This document shows, one piece after another, positions 2,230-63,960 of a stretch of DNA of 64,000 bases (positions are counted from its first letter, which is position 1; each line of letters starts with the position of its first letter). The stretch is from contig JBDLIC010000004.1 in assembly GCA_039715075.1 (NCBI GenBank), positions 3,041 through 67,040 of the forward strand. The letters run 5' to 3'. Position numbers and translations under genes: made by a program. The DNA comes from Nitrospirota bacterium. Lineage in GTDB: Bacteria; Nitrospirota; Thermodesulfovibrionia; UBA6902. The notes beneath the pieces were generated by a model. That model saw nothing but the letters and a program-made list of their open reading frames with translations, ran no database searches and was not told where the DNA came from.

Positions 2230-2556
2230 ATGCCTGTTATTACAAAAGAAGCACTTATCAAGAAAACCGGAGACCTTAAGGTCCTGTCTTTTGTTGCAAA
2301 AAAGATCCTTGATACAATCAGTGACGACAATCTATCATTCTCGGACCTGGCGGATATTAGCGAGAAGGACCAGACTATCGATGCACGTGTACTAAAGGTT
2401 TCAAACAGTCCCATGTACGGGTTAAGGCAGGAAGTAAACAGTATTCAGCAGGCCCTTATGATACTCGGGCTAAAAACAATAAGAAGTCTTGTCCTGTCCC
2501 TTTCAACAAGGTCCCTTTACAAAAAATTCGGTATGACCGATGGTCCAAAATATTAG
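2230..2556 (+). CDS. HDOD domain protein, apparently C-terminally truncated (N-terminal ~108 aa only)
   Basis: N-terminal HDOD signature (LKVLSFVAKKILDTISDDNLSFSDLADIS..ARVLKVSNSPMYGL..VNSIQQALMILGLKTIRSLVLSLS). A stop occurs after 108 aa and no continuation is found in any frame. Confidence 0.5.
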   Translation: MPVITKEALIKKTGDLKVLSFVAKKILDTISDDNLSFSDLADISEKDQTIDARVLKVSNSPMYGLRQEVNSIQQALMILGLKTIRSLVLSLSTRSLYKKFGMTDGPKY

Positions 2557-2586
2557 CGAAACCTATGAAAATGAAAAGGCAGTCTT

Positions 2587-2925
2587 TCAGTTATCACCGT
2601 GTCTGTATTTAATGATACTGACCTTTTCCATTGTAATTAATCCTTCCTTTACATTGTCATCCAGAAATGGAATTAATTTATTAATGTTTTCTTCCGTATC
2701 AACAATTTCGATCATTACAGGAAGATCTTCAGACAGACGAAGCAGTTTTACAGAGTGAATACGGCTGGTCGCGCCGTAGCCCATTATTCCGCGGAAAACT
2801 GTTGCACCTGCCAGGTTCAGTTTTCTTGCCTCAAGGACTATGGCCTCATACAGGGCCTTTCCCTTGAAGGTGTCTGTTTCTCCAATAAAAATTCTGAGCA
2901 GCTTTCCTTCTTCAGGCAGTTTCAT
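2587..2925 (-). CDS. DUF190 (COG1993) protein, crcB-associated
   Basis: 112 aa, PII-like DUF190 typical partner of crcB; adjacent downstream of crcB. Confidence 0.8.
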   Translation of the reverse strand: MKLPEEGKLLRIFIGETDTFKGKALYEAIVLEARKLNLAGATVFRGIMGYGATSRIHSVKLLRLSEDLPVMIEIVDTEENINKLIPFLDDNVKEGLITMEKVSIIKYRHGDN

Positions 2926-2934
2926 GATTTTTCC

Positions 2935-3321
2935 TTATCTGATGGCGTTAATAATATATTTTGAGAGCAGAAATCCTGCAAATACAAGAGCTATCCCGAT
3001 TATGTTGCTTGCCAGTATATTTGAAAGTGCAAGCTTGATCTGGCCGTCTCTGAACATACTGAAGTTTTCGAGGGCGAATGTTGAAAAAGTGGTAAACCCG
3101 CCCAGTACGCCTATGAAAATAAAGTTTCTTATGTTCGATGAAATGTTTTCGATATCAAAAAAACCCCAGAGAAGTCCTATGGCAAACGAACCCGCCAGAT
3201 TAACAAAGAGGGTCCCCCAGGGGAAGACGCCGTTAAATAATTTGTATGTCAGTCCTGATAGTGAGTAGCGCAGCAGTGTTCCAACTGCACCGCCTGCCGC
3301 GAGAAGTAATATCTTTGTCAT
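2935..3321 (-). CDS. crcB: fluoride ion channel CrcB/FluC
   Basis: 128 aa, 4 TM segments, GTLxVNxxGSF motif typical of CrcB. Confidence 0.9.
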   Translation of the reverse strand: MTKILLLAAGGAVGTLLRYSLSGLTYKLFNGVFPWGTLFVNLAGSFAIGLLWGFFDIENISSNIRNFIFIGVLGGFTTFSTFALENFSMFRDGQIKLALSNILASNIIGIALVFAGFLLSKYIINAIR

Positions 3322-3421
3322 ACGTTATTTATGAAGGCCTCCTGATTTATTGTGACTATAAAAAATTTACATGTTATCTGTCGAAAAATCAATAAATATT
3401 TGATAGAATGGGGGACAAGAA

Positions 3422-4723
3422 ATGCTGAAAAGATATTTTAAACTTGAGGAACTGGGGACAAATGTAAAACAGGAGGTCATTGCCGGTGCAACAACCTTTG
3501 CGACAATGGCCTATATAATAGTTGTTAATCCCAAGATCCTTGAAGCTGCAGGCATCCCCTTCGGACCGTCTATGGTAGCAACTATAATGAGTGCCTTTTT
3601 CGGTACTCTTGCCATGGGTGTCTATGCGAAGAGGCCCTTTGCGATCGCGCCATATATGGGAGAGAATGCCTTTATCGCATATACTGTTGTGAAGGTCCTC
3701 GGCTACAGCTGGCAGACTGCATTGGGAGCAATTTTTATCGGCGGAGTTCTATTTACAATTCTCACTGTGCTCAATATCAGGACCTGGCTGGCAAAATCAA
3801 TCCCGGAGGGACTCAGGATAGGATTTGTTGTAGGTATCGGGTTATTTCTGACGTTTATAGGCTTAAACATGACTGGGATTGTTGTGCCGGGTGTTCCCGG
3901 TGCGCCTGTACATGTAGGAAAAATGAATGACACGACTGTGCTGCTTGCGATATTCGGTTTTTTCCTGACCTCATTCCTTATGATTAAACGGATCAAAGGC
4001 GCTATTCTTTTTGGTATCCTGGCGGTTACTTTTTTGGCATTCGCCATGAAACTGGCATCAATGCCGGACAGGTGGGTCAGCATGCCGCCGAGTATCATGC
4101 CTGTTTTTCTGGAGCTTGATATAGCAGGGGCTCTCAGCTGGGGATTCTTTGCGGTCATCCTTACTGTATTTGTGATGGACTTCGTTGATACAATGGGCAC
4201 ATTGATTGCGCTTTCTTACAGGGCTGATCTGCTGGATGAAAAGGGCAACCTGCCGGAGATGGAAAAACCTATGCTGTGTGATTCCCTTGCAACCGTTGTA
4301 GCCTCTCTATTAGGCACAACTACAACCGGAACATTTCTTGAATCAGCTACAGGGATAGAGTCAGGAGGCAAATCAGGTTTAACGTCGGTTGTGACTGCGT
4401 TCCTGTTTCTGCTTGCACTTTTCTTTGCTCCATTTTTTACTGCAATTCCAGCATACGCATATGGCCCGGCACTGATTATCGTAGGTATGCTGATGCTGTC
4501 CCCGATAAAAAGGATTAAATTTGATGATCTGACAGAAGTCATACCTTCATTCTGCATAATTGTACTCATGAGTTTTACATTCAATATTGGAATTGGAATG
4601 ACAGCCGGTTTTATTGTATATCCTTTTATTAAGACAGTATCAGGAAGGGGCAAGGAAGTCCCGCCCGGGCTCTGGGTGCTTGCTGCGTTATCTCTGCTTT
4701 TCTTTATATTCTATCCTTATTAA
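3422..4723 (+). CDS. NCS2 family nucleobase permease (AzgA/PurP-like adenine/guanine/hypoxanthine permease)
   Basis: 433 aa polytopic membrane protein; N-terminus FKLEELGTNVKQEVIAGATTFATMAYIIVVNP characteristic of COG2252. Confidence 0.85.
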   Translation: MLKRYFKLEELGTNVKQEVIAGATTFATMAYIIVVNPKILEAAGIPFGPSMVATIMSAFFGTLAMGVYAKRPFAIAPYMGENAFIAYTVVKVLGYSWQTALGAIFIGGVLFTILTVLNIRTWLAKSIPEGLRIGFVVGIGLFLTFIGLNMTGIVVPGVPGAPVHVGKMNDTTVLLAIFGFFLTSFLMIKRIKGAILFGILAVTFLAFAMKLASMPDRWVSMPPSIMPVFLELDIAGALSWGFFAVILTVFVMDFVDTMGTLIALSYRADLLDEKGNLPEMEKPMLCDSLATVVASLLGTTTTGTFLESATGIESGGKSGLTSVVTAFLFLLALFFAPFFTAIPAYAYGPALIIVGMLMLSPIKRIKFDDLTEVIPSFCIIVLMSFTFNIGIGMTAGFIVYPFIKTVSGRGKEVPPGLWVLAALSLLFFIFYPY

Positions 4724-6352: not shown

Positions 6353-6356
6353 AAAA

Positions 6357-6387
6357 GCTGTCAGCTATCAGCAGTCAGCTTTCAGCT
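6357..6387. repeat. tandem heptamer array GCTNTCA x4.4
   Basis: gctgtca gctatca gcagtca gctttca gct, between convergent hisF and the ThiI-like gene; the same unit family recurs at 57990..58112. Confidence 0.8.
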
Positions 6388-7616: not shown

Positions 7617-11303
<3,687 letters not shown>

Positions 11304-26345: not shown

Positions 26346-27053
26346 ATGGTTTGTTTAATAACAGGTTCATCAAGAGGTCTTGGAAAAGAACTGGCCCTAT
26401 ATTTTGGAAAGAAGGGCTACAGGATTGCTGTGCATTGTAAAGAGAGCAGGACAGAATCGGAAGATGTTGCATCACAGGCTGGCGAATCCATCGTTCTTAA
26501 GGCTGATGTCAGGGTCTGCAAAGATGTAAAGGCTATAGTTGATAAGGTTATCGACAGGTGGGGAAGAATTGATCTGCTTGTTAACAATGCAGGCATTACA
26601 AAGGAGTCCCTGCTCATTAAAACATCGGAAGAGGATTTTGATGATGTGATAAATACAAACCTGAAAGGGCCATTTAACATGATCCGGGCTGTGGGAAGGC
26701 ATATGATGAAGCAGAAGAGCGGGCATATCATTAATATTTCTTCTTACGCGGGAGTTAAGGGCAAAGAAGGACTGTCTGCCTATTCTGCGTCAAAATCTGG
26801 CCTTATAGGACTGACAAAGACTGCTGCCAGAGAATTAAGCAGATACAATATTATGGTCAATGCTGTTCTGCCCGGGTTTATGCTCACTGATATGGGTGCC
26901 GGCTCCAGCGGCACGGCAAAAGAGAAGGCATTAAACGAAAGTCTTGTGAAAGATTATTCTAATCCTGCAAAGATTGCGGAGTTTATCGGAAATCTTTCTG
27001 AAGCCTCAGGGATAACAGGGCAGGTTTTTAATCTGGACAGCAGGATAATTTAA
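26346..27053 (+). CDS. SDR family oxidoreductase (FabG-like 3-oxoacyl-ACP reductase)
   Basis: 235 aa; TGSSRGLG cofactor motif; YSASK catalytic motif. Confidence 0.85.
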   Translation: MVCLITGSSRGLGKELALYFGKKGYRIAVHCKESRTESEDVASQAGESIVLKADVRVCKDVKAIVDKVIDRWGRIDLLVNNAGITKESLLIKTSEEDFDDVINTNLKGPFNMIRAVGRHMMKQKSGHIINISSYAGVKGKEGLSAYSASKSGLIGLTKTAARELSRYNIMVNAVLPGFMLTDMGAGSSGTAKEKALNESLVKDYSNPAKIAEFIGNLSEASGITGQVFNLDSRII

Positions 27054-27071
27054 TTAATATTTTGAAGATTT

Positions 27072-27169
27072 AAATCCCCCTTTGGCAAAGGGGGATTTAG
27101 GGGGATTATTAAAATGATTTTAGTATGATTATAAAATCTCCCCTAACCCCTCTTTGCCAAAGAGGGGAA
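27072..27169. repeat. bipartite palindromic intergenic repeat, copy A (~100 bp)
   Basis: hairpin aaatccccctttggcaaagggggattt + agggggatt + AT-rich spacer + aatctcccctaa + hairpin cccctctttgccaaagagggg; homologous copies at 49509..49598 and 63914..63960. Confidence 0.85.
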
Positions 27170-27182
27170 ATATAAAAAGAAA

Positions 27183-27887
27183 ATGAACAAAGGCATATTT
27201 ATTACAGGGACTGATACAGGGATTGGTAAAACTTTTGTAGCCTGCGGATTAATCAGGGCCATGAAAGAAAAGGGAATGAATGTCTGCCCGATAAAGCCCG
27301 TAGAGTCCGGATGCCGGTCGGTCAGAGGGGAGCTTATTCCGTCTGATACAAAAAAACTTATCAAAGCATCAGGTATTGACGAACCAATCGATTTAATCAA
27401 TCCATACAGGCTGAAACATCCGCTTGCTCCATCAGTTGCTGCAAAAATCGAGGGAGTAGCGATTAATAAGAAAAAGATATTTTCCGCATATAAACGGTTG
27501 TCAAAAAAGTATGACATTACAGTTGTTGAAGGGGCAGGGGGTATTATGGTACCTGTTTATAAAAAATATCTTTTCCTTGATCTTGCAAAAGATCTGGACA
27601 TTCCGGTTGTGATTGTTGCAAGGCCGGGTCTTGGAACGATTAATCATACTCTTCTTACAATTGAAGCTCTCAGGAGTAATGGATTGTCTGTTGCCGGTGT
27701 GATAATTAATTGTGCAGTGAAATCCGGAAAAGGATTGTCCGAGAAAACTAATCCTGAAGTTATTGAAAAGCTTGGGGGTGTCCCTGTGTTAGGCTCGGTA
27801 CCGCATGATAACAACACTGCTTTTATCCCTGTAAAAAAAGTATTTGTTCAGATAATTGAAAAGATGCTGCTGCGGTTAATGGGTTGA
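27183..27887 (+). CDS. bioD: dethiobiotin synthetase
   Basis: 234 aa; FITGTDTGIGKT P-loop. Confidence 0.9.
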   Translation: MNKGIFITGTDTGIGKTFVACGLIRAMKEKGMNVCPIKPVESGCRSVRGELIPSDTKKLIKASGIDEPIDLINPYRLKHPLAPSVAAKIEGVAINKKKIFSAYKRLSKKYDITVVEGAGGIMVPVYKKYLFLDLAKDLDIPVVIVARPGLGTINHTLLTIEALRSNGLSVAGVIINCAVKSGKGLSEKTNPEVIEKLGGVPVLGSVPHDNNTAFIPVKKVFVQIIEKMLLRLMG

Positions 27888-28888: not shown

Positions 28889-28913
28889 TCAGATTGCACA
28901 GATTGCACAGATT
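28889..28913. repeat. tandem 9-mer array CAGATTGCA x2.7
   Basis: cagattgca cagattgca cagatt directly after the lipA stop; inverted partner array at 29063..29089. Confidence 0.75.
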
Positions 28914-29062: not shown

Positions 29063-29089
29063 AATCTGTGAAATCTGTGTAATCTGCGG
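29063..29089. repeat. tandem 9-mer array AATCTGTGN x3 (inverse of 28889 array)
   Basis: aatctgtga aatctgtgt aatctgcgg, 19 to 45 nt upstream of the aminotransferase ATG; reverse complement of the CACAGATT units. Confidence 0.75.
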
Positions 29090-30280: not shown

Positions 30281-30282
30281 AA

Positions 30283-30371
30283 ACTGTTCCAACCGTTCCA
30301 ACAGTTTTAACTGTTCCAGCAGTTAACGGCTCAAGCGGCTGAAACGGCTGAAACGGCTGGAACGGTTTTTT
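30283..30371 (+). terminator. compound repeat-hairpin terminator (inverted 9-mer arrays + T6)
   Basis: Array ctgttccaa ccgttccaa cagttttaa ctgttccag and an inverse array aacggctga aacggctgg aacgg, followed by tttttt. Confidence 0.55.
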
Positions 30372-32822: not shown

Positions 32823-32825
32823 AAA

Positions 32826-32914
32826 GGATCCAAGGGGTCCAGGGTTCAAGGATTCGAGTGAAAGAAAAATCAGTTTCACTTGAACCCTCGAATCCTTGAA
32901 TCCTTGAATCCTAG
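32826..32914. repeat. inverted tandem-repeat arrays (GGNTCCAGG-type 9-mers vs CCTTGAATC-type)
   Basis: ggatccaag gggtccagg gttcaagga ttcgag ... cttgaaccc tcgaatcct tgaatcct tgaatcct, between moeB/thiF and the ThrC paralog. Confidence 0.7.
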
Positions 32915-32979
32915 ACTCCTGGTAATAAACAGGAAATATTTTACTAAGTATAGAAGTAATATTGGAGGCAAATTAAATT

Positions 32980-42291: not shown

Positions 42292-42377
42292 GCCGGAGTG
42301 GTGAAATGGCAGACGCGTCGGACTCAAAATCCGATATCCTCCGGGATGTGTGGGTTCGAATCCCACCTCCGGCACCA
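42292..42377 (+). tRNA. tRNA-Leu (anticodon CAA)
   Basis: 86 nt; GCCGGAG acceptor stem; long variable arm; anticodon loop CUCAAAA; TPsiC arm GGTTCGAATCC; terminal CCA encoded. Confidence 0.88.
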
Positions 42378-47700: not shown

Positions 47701-47738
47701 GACGATAAATTATCAATTACAAATTACGAATTAAAGAA

Positions 47739-48269: not shown

Positions 48270-48801
48270 CATTCCGACCATTATAACCTTAAGCAGGATA
48301 TTGATAATTCTTCCTTTTGTACTTGTTGCTACAGACAATCCCCTGCTTGGCGCCATACTGTTCAGTATCGCTTCTCTCACCGACCTGCTGGACGGATATG
48401 TCGCAAGAAAGACCAGGCAGGTAACAAAACTCGGCATACTCCTTGATCCGATAGCGGACAAACTGCTGGTTATCTCTGCGCTTATCCTGCTGGTTGATAC
48501 AGCCACGATCCCTGCATGGATAGCAATTATAATAATCGCGAGAGAATTTATTGTCACCGGTCTGCGCATAGCCGCATTATCAAAAGACATCATGATCCCG
48601 GCTGAAATGGGGGGCAAGATAAAAATGGGCTGCCAGATAGCAGCCATACTTGTACTCTTCATCGAGAAGACGCTTCTTCTGGACAGAATAATGCCAGACA
48701 TTGATTTTTATTCCCTGGGCATTGCTTTATTATGGACAGCCATGGTCCTTGGTGTCATATCCGGTGTCCAGTACTTTATTCTTTTTTGGAAAAGAATATA
48801 A
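48244..48801 (+). CDS. pgsA: CDP-diacylglycerol--glycerol-3-phosphate 3-phosphatidyltransferase
   Basis: 185 aa; CDP-alcohol phosphatidyltransferase motif DGYVARK...G...D...D. Confidence 0.85.
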   Translation: MYQGNHLISIPTIITLSRILIILPFVLVATDNPLLGAILFSIASLTDLLDGYVARKTRQVTKLGILLDPIADKLLVISALILLVDTATIPAWIAIIIIAREFIVTGLRIAALSKDIMIPAEMGGKIKMGCQIAAILVLFIEKTLLLDRIMPDIDFYSLGIALLWTAMVLGVISGVQYFILFWKRI

Positions 48802-49457
48802 TGGAGAATGCTTTTTCAGGCAACATTCTTTTATATCTACTCATACCTGTTGCCTTTCTTCTCGGTTCAATCCCCTTTGGCATTATTTTTACAAAGGGCA
48901 GCGGTATTGATATAAGAAGTGTCGGCAGCATGAATATAGGCGCCACAAATGTACTGAGGTCAGCAGGTAAGGTGCCGGCAATTCTTACCCTGCTCGGCGA
49001 TATTCTTAAGGGTTCAGTGGCAGTAATTCTGTGCAGAATTGTATTGGTTAAAGTTGTGCAGCCCGGCTCTGAGACCGGAATTCCTGCTGGAACGGAGGAT
49101 CTGTGGCTTGGCATTATCAGCCTGACAGCTGTGCTGGGACATATGCTGTCCGTTTTTTTGAAATTCCGGGGCGGGAAGGGTGTAGCTACAGGTTTTGGAG
49201 TGATGATCGTTTACAGCCCTCCTGTTGCGGGCCTCATGCTTCTTGTCTGGATTGCGGCTGCAGTATCATTTAAATACTCATCTCTGTCCGCACTTATATC
49301 AGTCAGCATAATGCCTTTTTTATTATTAATGTTCGGAGCTTCCGGCATAAAAATTATATTCGGGATACTGCTGGCACTAATAATTATTTATAAGCATAAG
49401 ACGAATATCAGGGCTCTTCTGGACGGGACAGAGGAAAAAATAGGGCATAAAGAATAA
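48801..49457 (+). CDS. plsY: glycerol-3-phosphate acyltransferase PlsY
   Basis: The ATG at 48801 overlaps the pgsA stop (TAATG) and starts MENAFSGNILLYLL; GSMNIGATNVLR motif; the ORF-track start at 48732 is upstream of this. Confidence 0.9.
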   Translation: MENAFSGNILLYLLIPVAFLLGSIPFGIIFTKGSGIDIRSVGSMNIGATNVLRSAGKVPAILTLLGDILKGSVAVILCRIVLVKVVQPGSETGIPAGTEDLWLGIISLTAVLGHMLSVFLKFRGGKGVATGFGVMIVYSPPVAGLMLLVWIAAAVSFKYSSLSALISVSIMPFLLLMFGASGIKIIFGILLALIIIYKHKTNIRALLDGTEEKIGHKE

Positions 49458-49508
49458 TTAAGAATTACGAATTTTGGATTAATATTTCATGAAAAGTTAT
49501 CCTTTTAT

Positions 49509-49598
49509 ATCTCCCCCTTTGGAAAAGGGGGATTAAGGGGGATTTTATAATTACATCATTGAAAAATCCCCCCTAGCCCCCCTTTACTAAAGTGGGGA
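49509..49598. repeat. bipartite palindromic intergenic repeat, copy B
   Basis: atctccccctttggaaaagggggattaagggggatt...aatcccccctagcccccctttactaaagtgggg; homologous to 27072..27169. Confidence 0.85.
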
Positions 49599-49648
49599 AT
49601 ACAAGTTGAGGAGTCAATAATGCAGTTAACCTTTATAAGGCATATTTA

Positions 49649-50428
49649 ATGAAAAAAGCGGTAGTACTTTTGAGTGGCGGGCTTGATTCTACGACTACAC
49701 TGGCTTTGGCCAAATCTGAAGGGTATGAAGTTTATGCTCTCAGTTTTGATTATGGGCAGAGGCATAATATTGAGCTTGAGCTTGCACAAATGAATGCAGA
49801 TAAATATGATGTAAATAAACATTTCTTGATAAATATTAACCTTAATGACATGGGCGGTTCAGCTCTGACCGCTGATATTGAAGTACCGAAGAGAGTTAAG
49901 AGTCAGGAGTCAAGAGTTAAGAGTAAAGAACAAAAGAAAGACGTAGAGCATAACTCATCACTCCAGACTCAAAACTCTTCTGTTGTTCCTGTTACATATG
50001 TTCCGGCGAGGAATACCATATTTCTTTCTTTTGCTCTTGCTTGGGCAGAGACTCTTGGAGCAGAGGATATTTTTATCGGGGCAAATGCCGTTGACTACAG
50101 TGGATACCCTGACTGCAGGCCTGAATATATAAAGGCATTTCAGGATATGGCAAACCTTGCGACAAAGGCATCTGTGGAAGGAAAGGTCAGGTTCAAAATT
50201 CATACTCCATTGATAAAACTTACAAAGGCGGAGATTATTCAAAAAGGTACGGAACTGGGTGTTGATTATTCGCTGACATGGAGCTGTTATGATCCGGAAG
50301 CAGAGCAAAGAGCACAGAACTCAGAACACAGATTATATTCTCCCTGTATGAAGTGTGACAGTTGTCTGTTTCGGGCAAAGGGGTTTAAGGAGGCAGGAAT
50401 CAAAGACCCGCTGGTCGTTAAAGTTTAA
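49649..50428 (+). CDS. queC: 7-cyano-7-deazaguanine synthase QueC
   Basis: 259 aa; [14 protein letters not shown]-loop; C-terminal Zn-Cys cluster CxxC..C..C; contains a ~30-aa K/S/Q-rich insertion. Confidence 0.92.
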
Positions 50429-57939: not shown

Positions 57940-57989
57940 AAAATGGGCCGCCTTTCTGAAATGAGATATCTTACCATTAATAGTACTAA

Positions 57990-58112
57990 GCTGTCAGCCG
58001 TCAGCTATCAGCTCTCAGCCTTAAAAAAAAAACGAAAGCACCTGCTTTAGTTTAGCTGTCAGCTATCAGCTCTTATTTTTTAGCTGACCGCTGAAAGCTG
58101 ACGGCTGACAGC
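57990..58112. repeat. GCTNTCA heptamer arrays (direct array + inverted array pair) with embedded terminator
   Basis: 57990..58020 gctgtca gccgtca gctatca gctctca gcc; 58054..58072 array; 58083..58112 inverted array ctgaccgctgaaagctgacggctgacagc. On the minus strand a hairpin AAGCAGGUGCUU plus U10 at 58023..58049 terminates the OYE gene, whose C-terminus is encoded within the arrays. Confidence 0.8.
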
Positions 58113-59205
58113 TTTTTTTCTTTACACAATAAATTCCTGTACCCCTTAAGCCAGGCCTGAAACACGCATTGTCGGACATGCATGCTGATTGTATTTCTTT
58201 ACCTGATTCCCACCTGTTGATCAGATCAGGGTCCCGGATGAAAGAACGGCTCATCGATATATAGTCAGTGGTCCCTTCGGTTAACAATTTTTCAGAAACT
58301 TCAAAAGAACGGATACCACCGACGAGCATTAACGGGACAGTGATTTCGGACTTGAATAATTTTGCGGCTTCCAGGTAATAAACCTCTTTATCTGATTCAG
58401 GCATGCCGGGCCTTACCGGTCTCAGCTTTCTGTCAGAATGAATCGTGCCTCCGCTTAACTCAATCGCATCGATGCCCTCTTTTTCGAGCATACGGGAGAC
58501 CACTATCATTTCTTCAACATTGAGTCCGTCTTCCAGAAAGTCTTCAGAGTTTATCTTTATTAAAACAGGGAAGTCATTACCCACGGCATTCCTGACTGAT
58601 CTGTATGATTCAATTATAATACGTGCACGGTTTTCAATGCTGCCGCCATAATCGTCTTCTCTCCTGTTGTAAAACGGTGAGAGGAACTGGCTTAGAAGAT
58701 AACCATGTGCAGCATGAATCTGGACTCCGTCAAAACCGGCCTCTTTTGCCCTGGCAGCTGCATCCCCGAATGCCCTGACTGTTTCTGCTATATCTTCAAT
58801 GCTCATTGCCCTGCATATTGCTTTTCCATTAATCTCAAGGGCGGATGGTCCTGATGGCTCATCTCCGGTGAGTTTCAGGCTGGCCTGGCAACCTGCATGC
58901 GCGAGCTGAAGTACGATCGTTCCATTACTTTGATGGACAGCTTCTGTCATTGATTTAAAACCGGGAATAAAATCATTTTTATGAATACCCAGCTGAAAAG
59001 GCCCTGCCTGGCCTGCGGACTGTACAAAGGCATATCCGGTTATTATCAAACCAGCACCGCCCTCTGCCAGTTTCACCATCATGTCTGTTAACTGTGGAGT
59101 GCAGGAACCGTCCTTTCCTGCGAGCCCCACCCATGTTGCAGAACGCACAAAACGGTTTTTTAGAATCATATTATTTATTTCTGTTTTTTCAAATAAATCT
59201 GACAT
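58066..59205 (-). CDS. Old Yellow Enzyme family NADH:flavin oxidoreductase
   Basis: 379 aa; TIM-barrel OYE motifs (HAAHGYLLSQFLSP); C-terminal Cys residues. Confidence 0.88.
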   Translation of the reverse strand: MSDLFEKTEINNMILKNRFVRSATWVGLAGKDGSCTPQLTDMMVKLAEGGAGLIITGYAFVQSAGQAGPFQLGIHKNDFIPGFKSMTEAVHQSNGTIVLQLAHAGCQASLKLTGDEPSGPSALEINGKAICRAMSIEDIAETVRAFGDAAARAKEAGFDGVQIHAAHGYLLSQFLSPFYNRREDDYGGSIENRARIIIESYRSVRNAVGNDFPVLIKINSEDFLEDGLNVEEMIVVSRMLEKEGIDAIELSGGTIHSDRKLRPVRPGMPESDKEVYYLEAAKLFKSEITVPLMLVGGIRSFEVSEKLLTEGTTDYISMSRSFIRDPDLINRWESGKEIQSACMSDNACFRPGLRGTGIYCVKKKSCQPSAFSGQLKNKS

Positions 59206-62840: not shown

Positions 62841-63779
62841 TTACTGTTTGGCTTTAATGTATTTCATCTGAATGTTCGCCGGGACGAGCCCCTGTCCTTC
62901 CGGACGCCACGGCAGAGATTTAATAATCTTATCTGTAATGTATTTAGCATCCGTTGAAATGGCGGCCAGCTCTTTTGCTTTTTTATCGAATGCAAGAAGA
63001 TAATATTTCATATCTGTGATGTCCTGTTTCCCTGAAACCGGCCCGTGTCCCGGAATTATCGTACGGATATCCATTGTCATAATACGGTCGAGAACTTTAA
63101 TCCATTTGCCAATATCTCCTTCTGCCAGAAAGGGATGGTAATCAGTAAAGAGTATGTCTCCTGAAAACAGTATCCTGCTCTCAGGCAAATAAACCAGAAT
63201 GCTCCCGTCCGTATGAGACGGTCCCGGATATATCAATTGTACTATTTGATTTCCAGTATCTAATTCCATCCTGTAAGGAAACGTTATTCCGGGATATGAG
63301 ATTTCCGTACCCTCCATATCCTCTTCTGTCAGGCCGTAGTTGCCTGCATTTTTCAGGGCGGCTTCACCTCTGTTTTTCAGATTGCGCCTGCAGATGTCAT
63401 GAGATATGACAGTTGCCCCGAGTTTTACAAATTCAGCGTTTCCAAATGCATGATCGAGATGGTAATGAGTATTGACTACCCATTTAACGGGTTTATCGGT
63501 AACTGCCCTTATGTCTTTAATAAACCTTTTTGCCTCTTTTGACGAGATGAGAGTATCAATAACAATGATCCCGTCTGTTCCGATAATAATTCCTGCATTC
63601 GCCCCGTAGCTGTTTTTGGGTGAACCATTTTTTATATCAACATATGAGTAAACATTATCCGCAATTTTTGTAAGCCCCCCCTGGGCCTGGGCCTGTTGAG
63701 CAACAAATAAGATGCTGGCAAAGGCGAGTACTATAATACTTAATGTGATAGTCCTTTTTCGAAAATGTAATTTTATCAT
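62841..63779 (-). CDS. MBL-fold metallo-hydrolase (secreted)
   Basis: 312 aa; signal peptide; THYHLDHAFG zinc motif. Confidence 0.85.
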   Translation of the reverse strand: MIKLHFRKRTITLSIIVLAFASILFVAQQAQAQGGLTKIADNVYSYVDIKNGSPKNSYGANAGIIIGTDGIIVIDTLISSKEAKRFIKDIRAVTDKPVKWVVNTHYHLDHAFGNAEFVKLGATVISHDICRRNLKNRGEAALKNAGNYGLTEEDMEGTEISYPGITFPYRMELDTGNQIVQLIYPGPSHTDGSILVYLPESRILFSGDILFTDYHPFLAEGDIGKWIKVLDRIMTMDIRTIIPGHGPVSGKQDITDMKYYLLAFDKKAKELAAISTDAKYITDKIIKSLPWRPEGQGLVPANIQMKYIKAKQ

Positions 63780-63913
63780 CCTTTTCTCCTTTTGATTACG
63801 ATTATGCTAATCTTCAATTTATTAAAAAATGATATTCTCCAACATGGTTAAACAATGAGTCTCATCATCTTATTGCTGCCTTTCTGGAAAAGACGATCCA
63901 GCTCCAGCTTTTT

Positions 63914-63960
63914 TCCCCTCTTTAGCAAAGAGGGGTTAGGGGAGATTTTCTAATTATAAT
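63914..63960. repeat. bipartite palindromic intergenic repeat, copy C (inverted orientation; remainder beyond window end not assessed)
   Basis: cccctctttagcaaagaggggttaggggagatttt is identical (1 mismatch over 38 nt) to the reverse complement of the right half of copy A (27135..27169). Confidence 0.8.

Follow-up and report, generated by a model that had tools for sequence, protein, structure and literature searches.

What are the palindromes that recur between genes in a 64,000-nt stretch of the genome of a Nitrospirota bacterium (GCA_039715075.1, contig JBDLIC010000004.1, positions 3,041 to 67,040; hereafter the window)? Three such sites, named here A, B and C, had been predicted from the sequence alone to be copies of a ~100-bp bipartite palindrome, and all three prove to be real copies at the positions predicted. 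The repeating entity is smaller, a 34-nt unit made of a 9-bp GC hairpin with a 3-nt loop followed by a G-box (GGGGGATTT). The paired layout holds for A and B, each of which contains two units in inverted orientation (A1 and A2, B1 and B2; 86-93 nt in total), while C is a solo unit. With a probability of roughly 0.55, the units are a non-autonomous interspersed repeat similar to the repetitive extragenic palindromes (REPs) and bacterial interspersed mosaic elements (BIMEs).

A covariance model of the unit, run on both strands with filters off, finds exactly five units in the window (51-59 bits, E 1e-17 to 1e-20), arranged as the inverted pairs 27075-27167 and 49512-49597 and the solo unit 63914-63948. 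The runner-up independent match scores 16 bits and falls in coding sequence (10623-10651). The hairpin pattern CCCYYTTTNNNAAARRGGG is matched 7 times, compared with 0.48 expected by shuffling, and 7 matches were reached in 0/100 shuffles. Repeat detection delineates the same sites as a direct family (27075-27107 / 49512-49544 / 63915-63947), with inverted arms within A (27076-27107 / 27135-27166, 81%) and within B (49505-49551 / 49558-49604, 77%). The right half of A and C form a 47-nt inverted repeat (27124-27170 / 63912-63958) with 44/47 identities (94%); the strong match claimed originally is thus there, with these counts in place of 38/39. It extends ~13 nt past the unit on the spacer side of A2, which indicates a probable copy-and-paste or duplicative origin within the window genome. 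The contig of a short-read (Logan) assembly of the same organism terminates inside A2, as expected for a multi-copy repeat.

When 188 units from the window and other genomes are aligned by their 3′ ends, conservation is limited to a 34-nt block and drops to background level on both sides. The consensus is Y-CCCCC-TTT-NNN-AAA-GGGGG-(ATTNA or GYNRG)-GGGGG-ATTT, in which the hairpin Y-CCCCC-TTT-NNN-AAA-GGGGG is followed by a 5-nt linker and the GGGGG-ATTT box. The motif A-GGGGG-ATT is thereby present ~2.5 times per unit, inverted and direct, one helical turn apart. Three flavours of the same length occur: 5G (GGGGG-ATTNA-GGGGG; A1 and B1 in the window), 6G (GGGGGG-YNR-GGGGGG; B2) and GA (GAGGGG-TTA-GGGGAG; A2 and C).

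In 148 distinct units, 98% of the cells of the 9-bp stem are paired, and two of its pairs alternate between U-A and C-G (70/65 and 20/120). Pairing and covariation at the observed level were reached in 0/500 shuffles, and shifting the partner column abolishes the signal. The test is fair because the 5′ arm was left unconstrained by the search pattern, with the reservation that the units are not phylogenetically independent. The hairpin is therefore kept by compensatory changes, the kind of change that had been proposed as a check on the stems; the small hairpins are not all perfect as first described, since the second hairpin of B has one mismatch. Loops and spacers vary freely, and spacer sequences are unrelated even within one genome. 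In computed folds, full pairs form as RNA a single ~40-bp hairpin of −50 to −53 kcal/mol (z about −6 to −7), whichever strand is folded.

The unit is far from confined to the window. A 27-nt pattern (39 bits, ~2 chance matches expected in 596 Gb) was scanned against GTDB contigs with one genome per species (185,579 species genomes) and against IMG/VR viral contigs, and it was found in at least 118 stretches of the former and at least 120 of the latter, which bears out the expectation of further copies. The matches listed come from more than ten phyla and include Beta- and Gammaproteobacteria, Desulfobacterota, Nitrospirota, Nitrospinota, Chloroflexota, Omnitrophota, Methylomirabilota, Schekmanbacteria, Poribacteria, WOR-3, Binatia, Deinococcota and others; none of those listed is from Firmicutes, Actinobacteria, Bacteroidota, Alphaproteobacteria, Cyanobacteria or Archaea. 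Cultured organisms among them are the Gamma- and Betaproteobacteria Iodobacter, Lysobacter, Luteimonas, Pseudoxanthomonas, Methylobacter, Acinetobacter, Glaesserella, Ursidibacter and Muribacter and, in Desulfobacterota, Geomesophilobacter. Flavour follows taxonomy: an AAGT prefix with the linker ATTTA is typical of Desulfobacterota, ATTGA of Beta- and Gammaproteobacteria, and ATTAA or ACTAA of Chloroflexota, Nitrospirota and candidate phyla, and the GA flavour is predominant in Pasteurellaceae. Further unit sites are present in ~20/118 of the 8-kb loci, and a plasmid search gave one weak match only.

The sequence has been tabulated before. Table S6 in the paper on the Geobacter bemidjiensis genome records six copies from that one genome as ‘Conserved sequences’ Gbem_R5001-R5006 with the consensus AAGTCCCCCTTTGCGAAGGGGGATTAGGGGGATTTC, and offers no name, structure, distribution or function (PMC2996986). 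Literature searches with the unit sequence and peptide strings returned nothing in main texts, the Geobacter supplement being the only place that has the unit, and the general surveys of REPs and of RAYT (REP-associated tyrosine transposase) and HUH enzymes that were consulted do not mention it. The family, which the original prediction called new, is thus neither new to the window genome nor strictly unreported, yet it is uncharacterised, and its near-constant sequence across phyla and phages is unusual for a REP-type class.

Solo is the commonest state of the unit (94 cases). Adjacent units are arranged head-to-head (26), tail-to-tail (18) or in tandem (4), so that 44/48 adjacent pairs are inverted. 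The partners also tend to differ in flavour: 37/48 inverted pairs consist of a 5G and a non-5G unit, compared with 50% expected (p = 2e-4), and 5G-5G pairs are nearly absent. In A as in B, units of two different flavours stand head-to-head. The spacer between paired units ranges from 4 to 107 nt, some hairpins are flanked by a box on either side, and flanking direct repeats were found at 0/33 head-to-head pairs. A phage head-gene module (L211, 970-4750) carries a tail-to-tail pair in each of four successive intergenic gaps, at least three of the four with a GGCGGCGAAGCCGCC-type hairpin between the units.

Comparison with relatives of the window organism, labelled Thermodesulfovibrionia, shows a turnover of units: close relatives have gained and lost them at gene junctions. 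In the spacer between the short-chain dehydrogenase/reductase (SDR) gene and bioD, a relative with 84% BioD identity (L122) has element A with four substitutions within units, and relatives at 75% have heptamer arrays or overlapping genes instead. In the plsY-queC spacer, the sister genome L129 (90% nucleotide identity, flanking genes) is identical at 68/68 unit positions and 13/16 spacer positions, L128 (88%) has only a hybrid hairpin, and L130 (75%) has no unit. The hybrid (CTCCCCCTTTGCTAAAGTGGGGA, 9941-9965) joins the left arm of the first hairpin of element B to the right arm of its second hairpin, both of them outer arms, and would most simply be the result of a deletion between direct CCCCCTTT repeats, an ancestral hairpin being the alternative. 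Elements are thus common to relatives at ~88-90% nucleotide identity and absent at ~75%, where 6-20 kb of sequence contain no unit. With both loci pooled, the window and its orthologous loci are identical in 132/136 unit columns and in 145/176 other intergenic columns (Fisher p = 2e-5). The units thus change more slowly than the intergenic sequence around them and are under constraint or homogenised.

The same two spacers seem to be repeat-accepting sites. Where the window has elements A and B, relatives have arrays of the heptamers AATTACG or GAGTTAA (L120 9963-10000, L123 9955-10000, L128 ~9907-9945, L130 ~2268-2300). The window itself contains a second class of intergenic repeats, tandem 7-9-nt units (AGCTGTC, AACTGTTCC/AACGGCTGA, CTTGAATC, AATTACC) located at 6356-6386, 57989-58019 with 58082-58113, 30282-30318 with 30325-30365, 28890-28913 with 29063-29086, 32824-32920 and 47707-47733, often as two inverted arrays that make a palindrome. 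These arrays recall the short tandemly repeated repetitive (STRR) heptamer repeats of cyanobacteria. One heptamer array, AGAGTCA x 5.4, lies inside the queC frame (49892-49929) as a low-complexity segment missing from 234-aa QueC homologues.

The positions of the units, their parts and the neighbouring genes are collected in Table 1; the flanking genes are those named in the original prediction. No partner unit for C is present between C and the end of the window. The spacer of A contains a four-codon mini-ORF (open reading frame; ATG ATT TTA GTA TGA) 8 nt past the A1 G-box (27099-27125), which is probably fortuitous.

Table 1. Units A1 to C, their component parts and the genes around them, in window coordinates
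Feature	Position	Strand	Remarks
SDR gene (adh_short)	26346..27053	+	ends 21 nt before A1
A1 (5G flavour)	27075..27107	+	covariance model 54.0 bits, E 1.5e-18
A1 hairpin TCCCCCTTT-GGC-AAAGGGGGA	27075-27095	+	stem extendable to 27072-27098
A1 linker TTT, then G-box AGGGGGATT	27099-27107 (G-box)	+	
Element A AT-rich spacer	27108..27133		sequence not kept between copies; partly conserved in orthologue L122
A2 (GA flavour), inverted	27134..27167	-	covariance model 54.3 bits
A2 C-box AATCTCCCCT (+ strand reading)	27135-27144		
A2 hairpin CCCCTCTTT-GCC-AAAGAGGGG (+ strand reading)	27147-27167		
bioD (dethiobiotin synthase; BioD-type AAA_26)	27183..27887	+	start 15 nt after A2 hairpin
plsY (PlsY, G3P_acyltransf)	48732..49457	+	upstream of element B
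B1 (5G flavour)	49512..49545	+	covariance model 59.2 bits, E 1.4e-20
B1 hairpin TCCCCCTTT-GGA-AAAGGGGGA	49512-49532	+	then linker TTA, G-box AGGGGGATT(T)
Element B spacer	49546..49563		13/16 identical in sister genome L129
B2 (6G flavour), inverted	49564..49597	-	covariance model 51.1 bits
B2 C-box AATCCCCCCT (+ strand reading)	49565-49574		
B2 hairpin CCCCCCTTT-ACT-AAAGTGGGG (+ strand reading)	49577-49597		one mismatch
queC	49649..50428	+	downstream of element B
Metallo-beta-lactamase-fold gene (Lactamase_B)	62841..63779	-	C lies 135 nt upstream of start codon
C (GA flavour), solo	63914..63948	+	covariance model 52.5 bits
C hairpin CCCCTCTTT-AGC-AAAGAGGGG	63915-63935	+	
C G-box AGGGGAGATT	63938-63947	+	

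In bacterial chromosomes the units are mostly intergenic, in 73 tandem, 29 divergent and 16 convergent gene gaps, and their orientation with respect to transcription there is unbiased (39 vs 34 overall; solos 19 vs 13; 5G units of pairs 12 vs 5). The genes near them have no common function: clustering of 2,928 neighbouring ORFs gave no recurrent protein family, the best cluster being represented at 9/118 loci. Crude ORF calls overlap ~18-28% of units.

Rfam has no family that matches the unit at gathering score: the window gives only a tRNA (an 83-nt gene at 42292-42374, its sole Rfam match), 16 other loci (141 kb) give nothing, and the E-value mode yields only sub-threshold look-alikes of microRNA precursors (32 bits vs 72). 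An assignment to a known RNA family, which would have spoken against a new element, is therefore not the case, and neither is the suggestion of a structured-RNA family favoured, as the unbiased orientation in chromosomes and the lack of an Rfam match make a discrete RNA gene unlikely.

Several other types of signal were considered and rejected. An intrinsic terminator is not indicated, because no T tract follows the hairpin; 26800-27400 contains 0 terminator-like sites, and what comes after the unit hairpin is ATTNAGGGGG on one strand, while on the opposite strand the sequence is not conserved. A promoter finds only weak 9/12 promoter-like matches, and by eye the consensus is a poor match to sigma-70. 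The FtsK-orienting polar sequences (KOPS) lack their defining feature here, GGGNAGGG being present in some 6G linkers but in both orientations. A G-quadruplex is rejected as there are only three G-runs per strand. For the lambda nut boxA/boxB, Noc/ParB/KorB sites, CsoR/RcnR operators and CRISPR repeats, the defining sequence feature is missing.

If the units are a REP/BIME-like repeat, a hairpin-recognising enzyme encoded elsewhere would copy them in trans as folded single-stranded DNA. The likeliest candidate would be a RAYT-like nuclease of the HUH/Y1 type, at perhaps one chance in four, with none found in the window or in ~1 Mb of flanks. New units would land preferentially beside a unit of the other flavour and, once inserted, would be co-transcribed and folded. 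The ~40-bp hairpin of a pair, at about −50 kcal/mol, could then affect mRNA processing or stability, while the G-box might sometimes be recruited as a Shine-Dalgarno (SD) sequence and the linker as a stop codon. Copies of one genome share flavour-specific details and, in the case of A2 and C, also flank.

A number of observations weigh against this reading. The RAYT/IS200-like gene that had been suggested as a partner did not turn up near the units: a motif regular expression together with jackhmmer (E. coli RayT, a Y1 protein) on 6,530 six-frame ORFs found no Y1/RAYT-like ORF in the window or adjoining any of the ~150 element sites in ~1 Mb of flanks. The sole Y1 gene to turn up (L027), 3 kb away from a unit, is bordered by unrelated repeats, not by units. 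It is located at 2475-3473 of a WOR-3 metagenome-assembled genome, encodes a 333-aa homologue of Y1/IS200-like transposases and has its own repeats (..tgtacaatataaagatttgaccccaaa..) on its flanks. By our rough estimate, 1-15 adjacencies would be expected among ~150 sites if each genome had one unit-flanked RAYT, and because of this their absence is weak evidence against the RAYT route and no refutation. The position profile of the unit shows neither a GTAG nor a CGTC tag, whereas REPs in the GTAG/CGTC scheme bear a terminal tag (PMC3733652). A near-identical sequence across phyla suits a conserved host or phage partner equally well as a transposase. Loops and spacers differ even within one genome, and most copies are therefore old and individually maintained rather than products of recent transposition. 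The divergent, promoter-containing gaps are not depleted (29 divergent vs 16 convergent), whereas in E. coli the REPs are depleted from divergent regions. Finally, a high copy number is not general, because G. bemidjiensis has only 6 copies.

Most viral matches listed are in Mu-like Pasteurellaceae prophages related to SuMu and Mannheimia phage 3927AP2; with megablast, the phage region had no match, and the distant mode led to Mu-like Pasteurellaceae phages. Their early operon contains 2-3 units of the GA flavour, and in each case the unit forms the apex of a larger palindrome. The larger palindrome of ~100 nt (AAAACACATTACTCAGCCCACTT ... AATGGGCTGTAAATGGGTTTT) is found 2-3 times in the early operon at many viral loci (in L137 at 7890-8010, 8940-9050 and 9860-9970, with a unit at the apex) and is possibly a separate, composite element. 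Between related Mu-like phages, one and the same gene junction can be occupied by a unit or cleanly empty, and these sites show no target-site duplication. In the pair L160/L190 the empty site is an overlapping TAATG stop/start, and at the occupied site the linker TAG stops the upstream gene and GGGGAG is placed 7 nt before the ATG as SD. In the pair L231/L146 the empty site already reads GGAGATTTTGA-ATG, and the addition consists of the hairpin part in front of it. In environmental phage contigs, 19/149 units have their G-box 4-8 nt ahead of the start codon of a long ORF, vs 13/202 units in genomes, where the distances show a small peak at 3-6 nt. In the Haemophilus phage SuMu (NC_019455; L251, 15686-15722), a 6G unit is situated in frame in the portal gene and is translated as KSPLAPLFQRGE; the context of this insertion recurs in the viral loci L136, L150 and L216.

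The main, though tentative, alternative, considerably less probable than a REP/BIME-like repeat, is that the unit is a cis-acting RNA module selected by host and phage at gene junctions and spread by recombination and horizontal transfer, with phages as vectors and with no dedicated transposase. The module would supply a hairpin that protects the mRNA 3′ end or, when units are paired, serves as an RNase III site, together with the TAG of the linker as stop codon and an SD-like G-box. Its conservation would come from complementarity to the universal anti-SD of 16S rRNA, the CCCCCUUU arm resembling the anti-SD and the GGGGG boxes the SD. The G-boxes at SD distance, the L160/L190 junction with its borrowed TAG and GGGGAG, and the hairpin inserted before the existing GGAGATTTTGA-ATG in L231/L146 are all in line with such a function, as are the purifying constraint on the units and the strong folding of full elements. 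The units of the Mu-like phages are moreover antisense to the genes in a ratio of 56:2, although these are orthologous positions of one phage group and the counts are not independent. Against it stand the lack of an orientation bias relative to flanking genes in bacterial chromosomes and the ~90% of units that lack a start codon at SD spacing; in the window, 15 nt separate the bioD ATG from the closest G-rich arm. Many units are in divergent gaps and some are in frame within ORFs, and SD pairing leaves the conserved ATTT tail unexplained.

A related and equally tentative proposal is that of a hitherto unrecognised ‘gene-junction cassette’ common to bacteria and phages: 34 nt, near-constant in more than ten phyla, inserted at and removed from the borders of cistrons through a mechanism of wide occurrence, neither RAYT nor a linked transposase, and bringing a hairpin, a stop codon and a ribosome-binding site. 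Such a cassette may also act as a recombination joint between phage modules.

It is less probable still that the unit is a DNA-binding site for a nucleoid-associated, topological or regulatory protein that reads A-GGGGG-ATT as paired sites with a flexible spacer. The E. coli BIMEs, which bind gyrase, IHF and Pol I, provide a parallel. Conservation of the motif at the sequence level across phyla with free loops and spacers, the heterotypic pairing rule, the unbiased orientation relative to transcription, the presence of units in divergent promoter regions and the constraint on the units would all suit a bound protein. However, the neighbouring genes share no function, spacers of 4 to 107 nt fit a fixed dimeric binder poorly, and patchiness among close relatives is odd for a core host factor. 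Moreover, the compensatory changes preserve the hairpin itself, which argues for a folded single strand rather than for recognition of a duplex.

A classical miniature inverted-repeat transposable element (MITE), i.e. a deletion derivative of an insertion sequence (IS) with the units as terminal inverted repeats, a parent transposase acting by cut- or copy-and-paste and target-site duplication, is very unlikely. Elements A and B do have inverted ends of ~34 nt and are short, and units are gained and lost between relatives, but none of the 33 head-to-head pairs has flanking direct repeats, the interior differs between copies in sequence and length even within one genome, and solo, tail-to-tail and tandem units equal head-to-head pairs in frequency. 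The intervals between widely spaced inverted units hold housekeeping genes and no transposase. The original suggestion of a REP/MITE-like mobile or recombinogenic element is thus best supported in its REP part, while the absence of target-site duplication and of a conserved interior sets the units apart from a classical MITE. Chance similarity or purely local duplication within the contig, to which just three sites per 64 kb and the commonness of G-rich SD-like strings might point, has a negligible probability, refuted as it is by the 7 pattern matches vs 0.48 expected, by the hundreds of copies elsewhere with the same 34-nt boundaries and by an unconstrained 5′ arm that is complementary in 98% of cells.

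The REP, BIME, REPIN, ERIC and Correia repeats are usually seen as lineage-specific, while the 34 nt of the present unit are kept in groups as far apart as Pasteurellaceae, Nitrospirota and Chloroflexota as well as in phages. Copying by a dedicated enzyme would imply an enzyme of unusually wide distribution that has gone unrecognised; without one, the unit would be a portable expression signal swapped by recombination. Either answer informs the old question of how such repeats spread and why genomes retain them. On the practical side, the unit disrupts short-read assemblies, gives rise to small ORFs that are spurious and inserts ‘SPL..KGG/QRG’ peptides in frame into annotated proteins.

Among known systems, the integron attC sites are also imperfect palindromes with conserved inverted ends and a variable centre, but the units have no RYYYAAC/GTTRRRY core sites and no integrase. 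An attC identity is rejected on account of the missing core sites, and the neighbours are syntenic housekeeping operons, not cassettes. The palindromic elements of Rickettsia resemble the unit in that units can sit in frame in protein genes, as in the SuMu portal gene; they are longer (~100-150 bp) and restricted to Rickettsia. The enterobacterial repetitive intergenic consensus or intergenic repeat unit (ERIC/IRU) and the Neisseria Correia elements are orphan intergenic palindromes of ~100-150 bp, co-transcribed with their neighbouring genes as long hairpins that can be cut by nucleases, and they have no known transposase. They are single long elements with a conserved interior, each belonging to one family or genus, Correia with TA duplications, and their only sequence similarity to the unit is in the AATCCCC/GGGGATT ends of ERIC.

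The REPIN-RAYT systems are closer, comprising two inverted REP-like units with a less conserved spacer that form one long hairpin, the units being conserved and inherited vertically among close relatives (PMC3116915, PMC3337134). The doublet is regarded as the mobile unit of REPINs (PMC3116915, PMC3337134), whereas in the present family solos are commonest, the spacers of A, B and other within-genome pairs are unrelated in sequence and length, and no unit-flanked single-copy RAYT was identified. The likeness is greatest to REP/BIME, which share with the unit a ~35-nt imperfect palindrome with a variable loop and conserved stems, a mostly extragenic location, the occurrence as solos and in clusters of alternating orientation, neighbours of different sequence type (as in Y and Z REPs) and the absence of a linked gene. 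The unit differs in having no GTAG/CGTC tag and no RAYT found nearby, in its conserved 14-nt 3′ tail (linker and G-box) outside the stem, in its frequency in divergent intergenic regions and in being near-constant in many phyla and phages, whereas a REP family is as a rule limited to one species or genus. The one identical counterpart is the set Gbem_R5001-R5006, which has the AAGT-prefixed 5G flavour as in Desulfobacterota and is placed between housekeeping genes in operons (PMC2996986).

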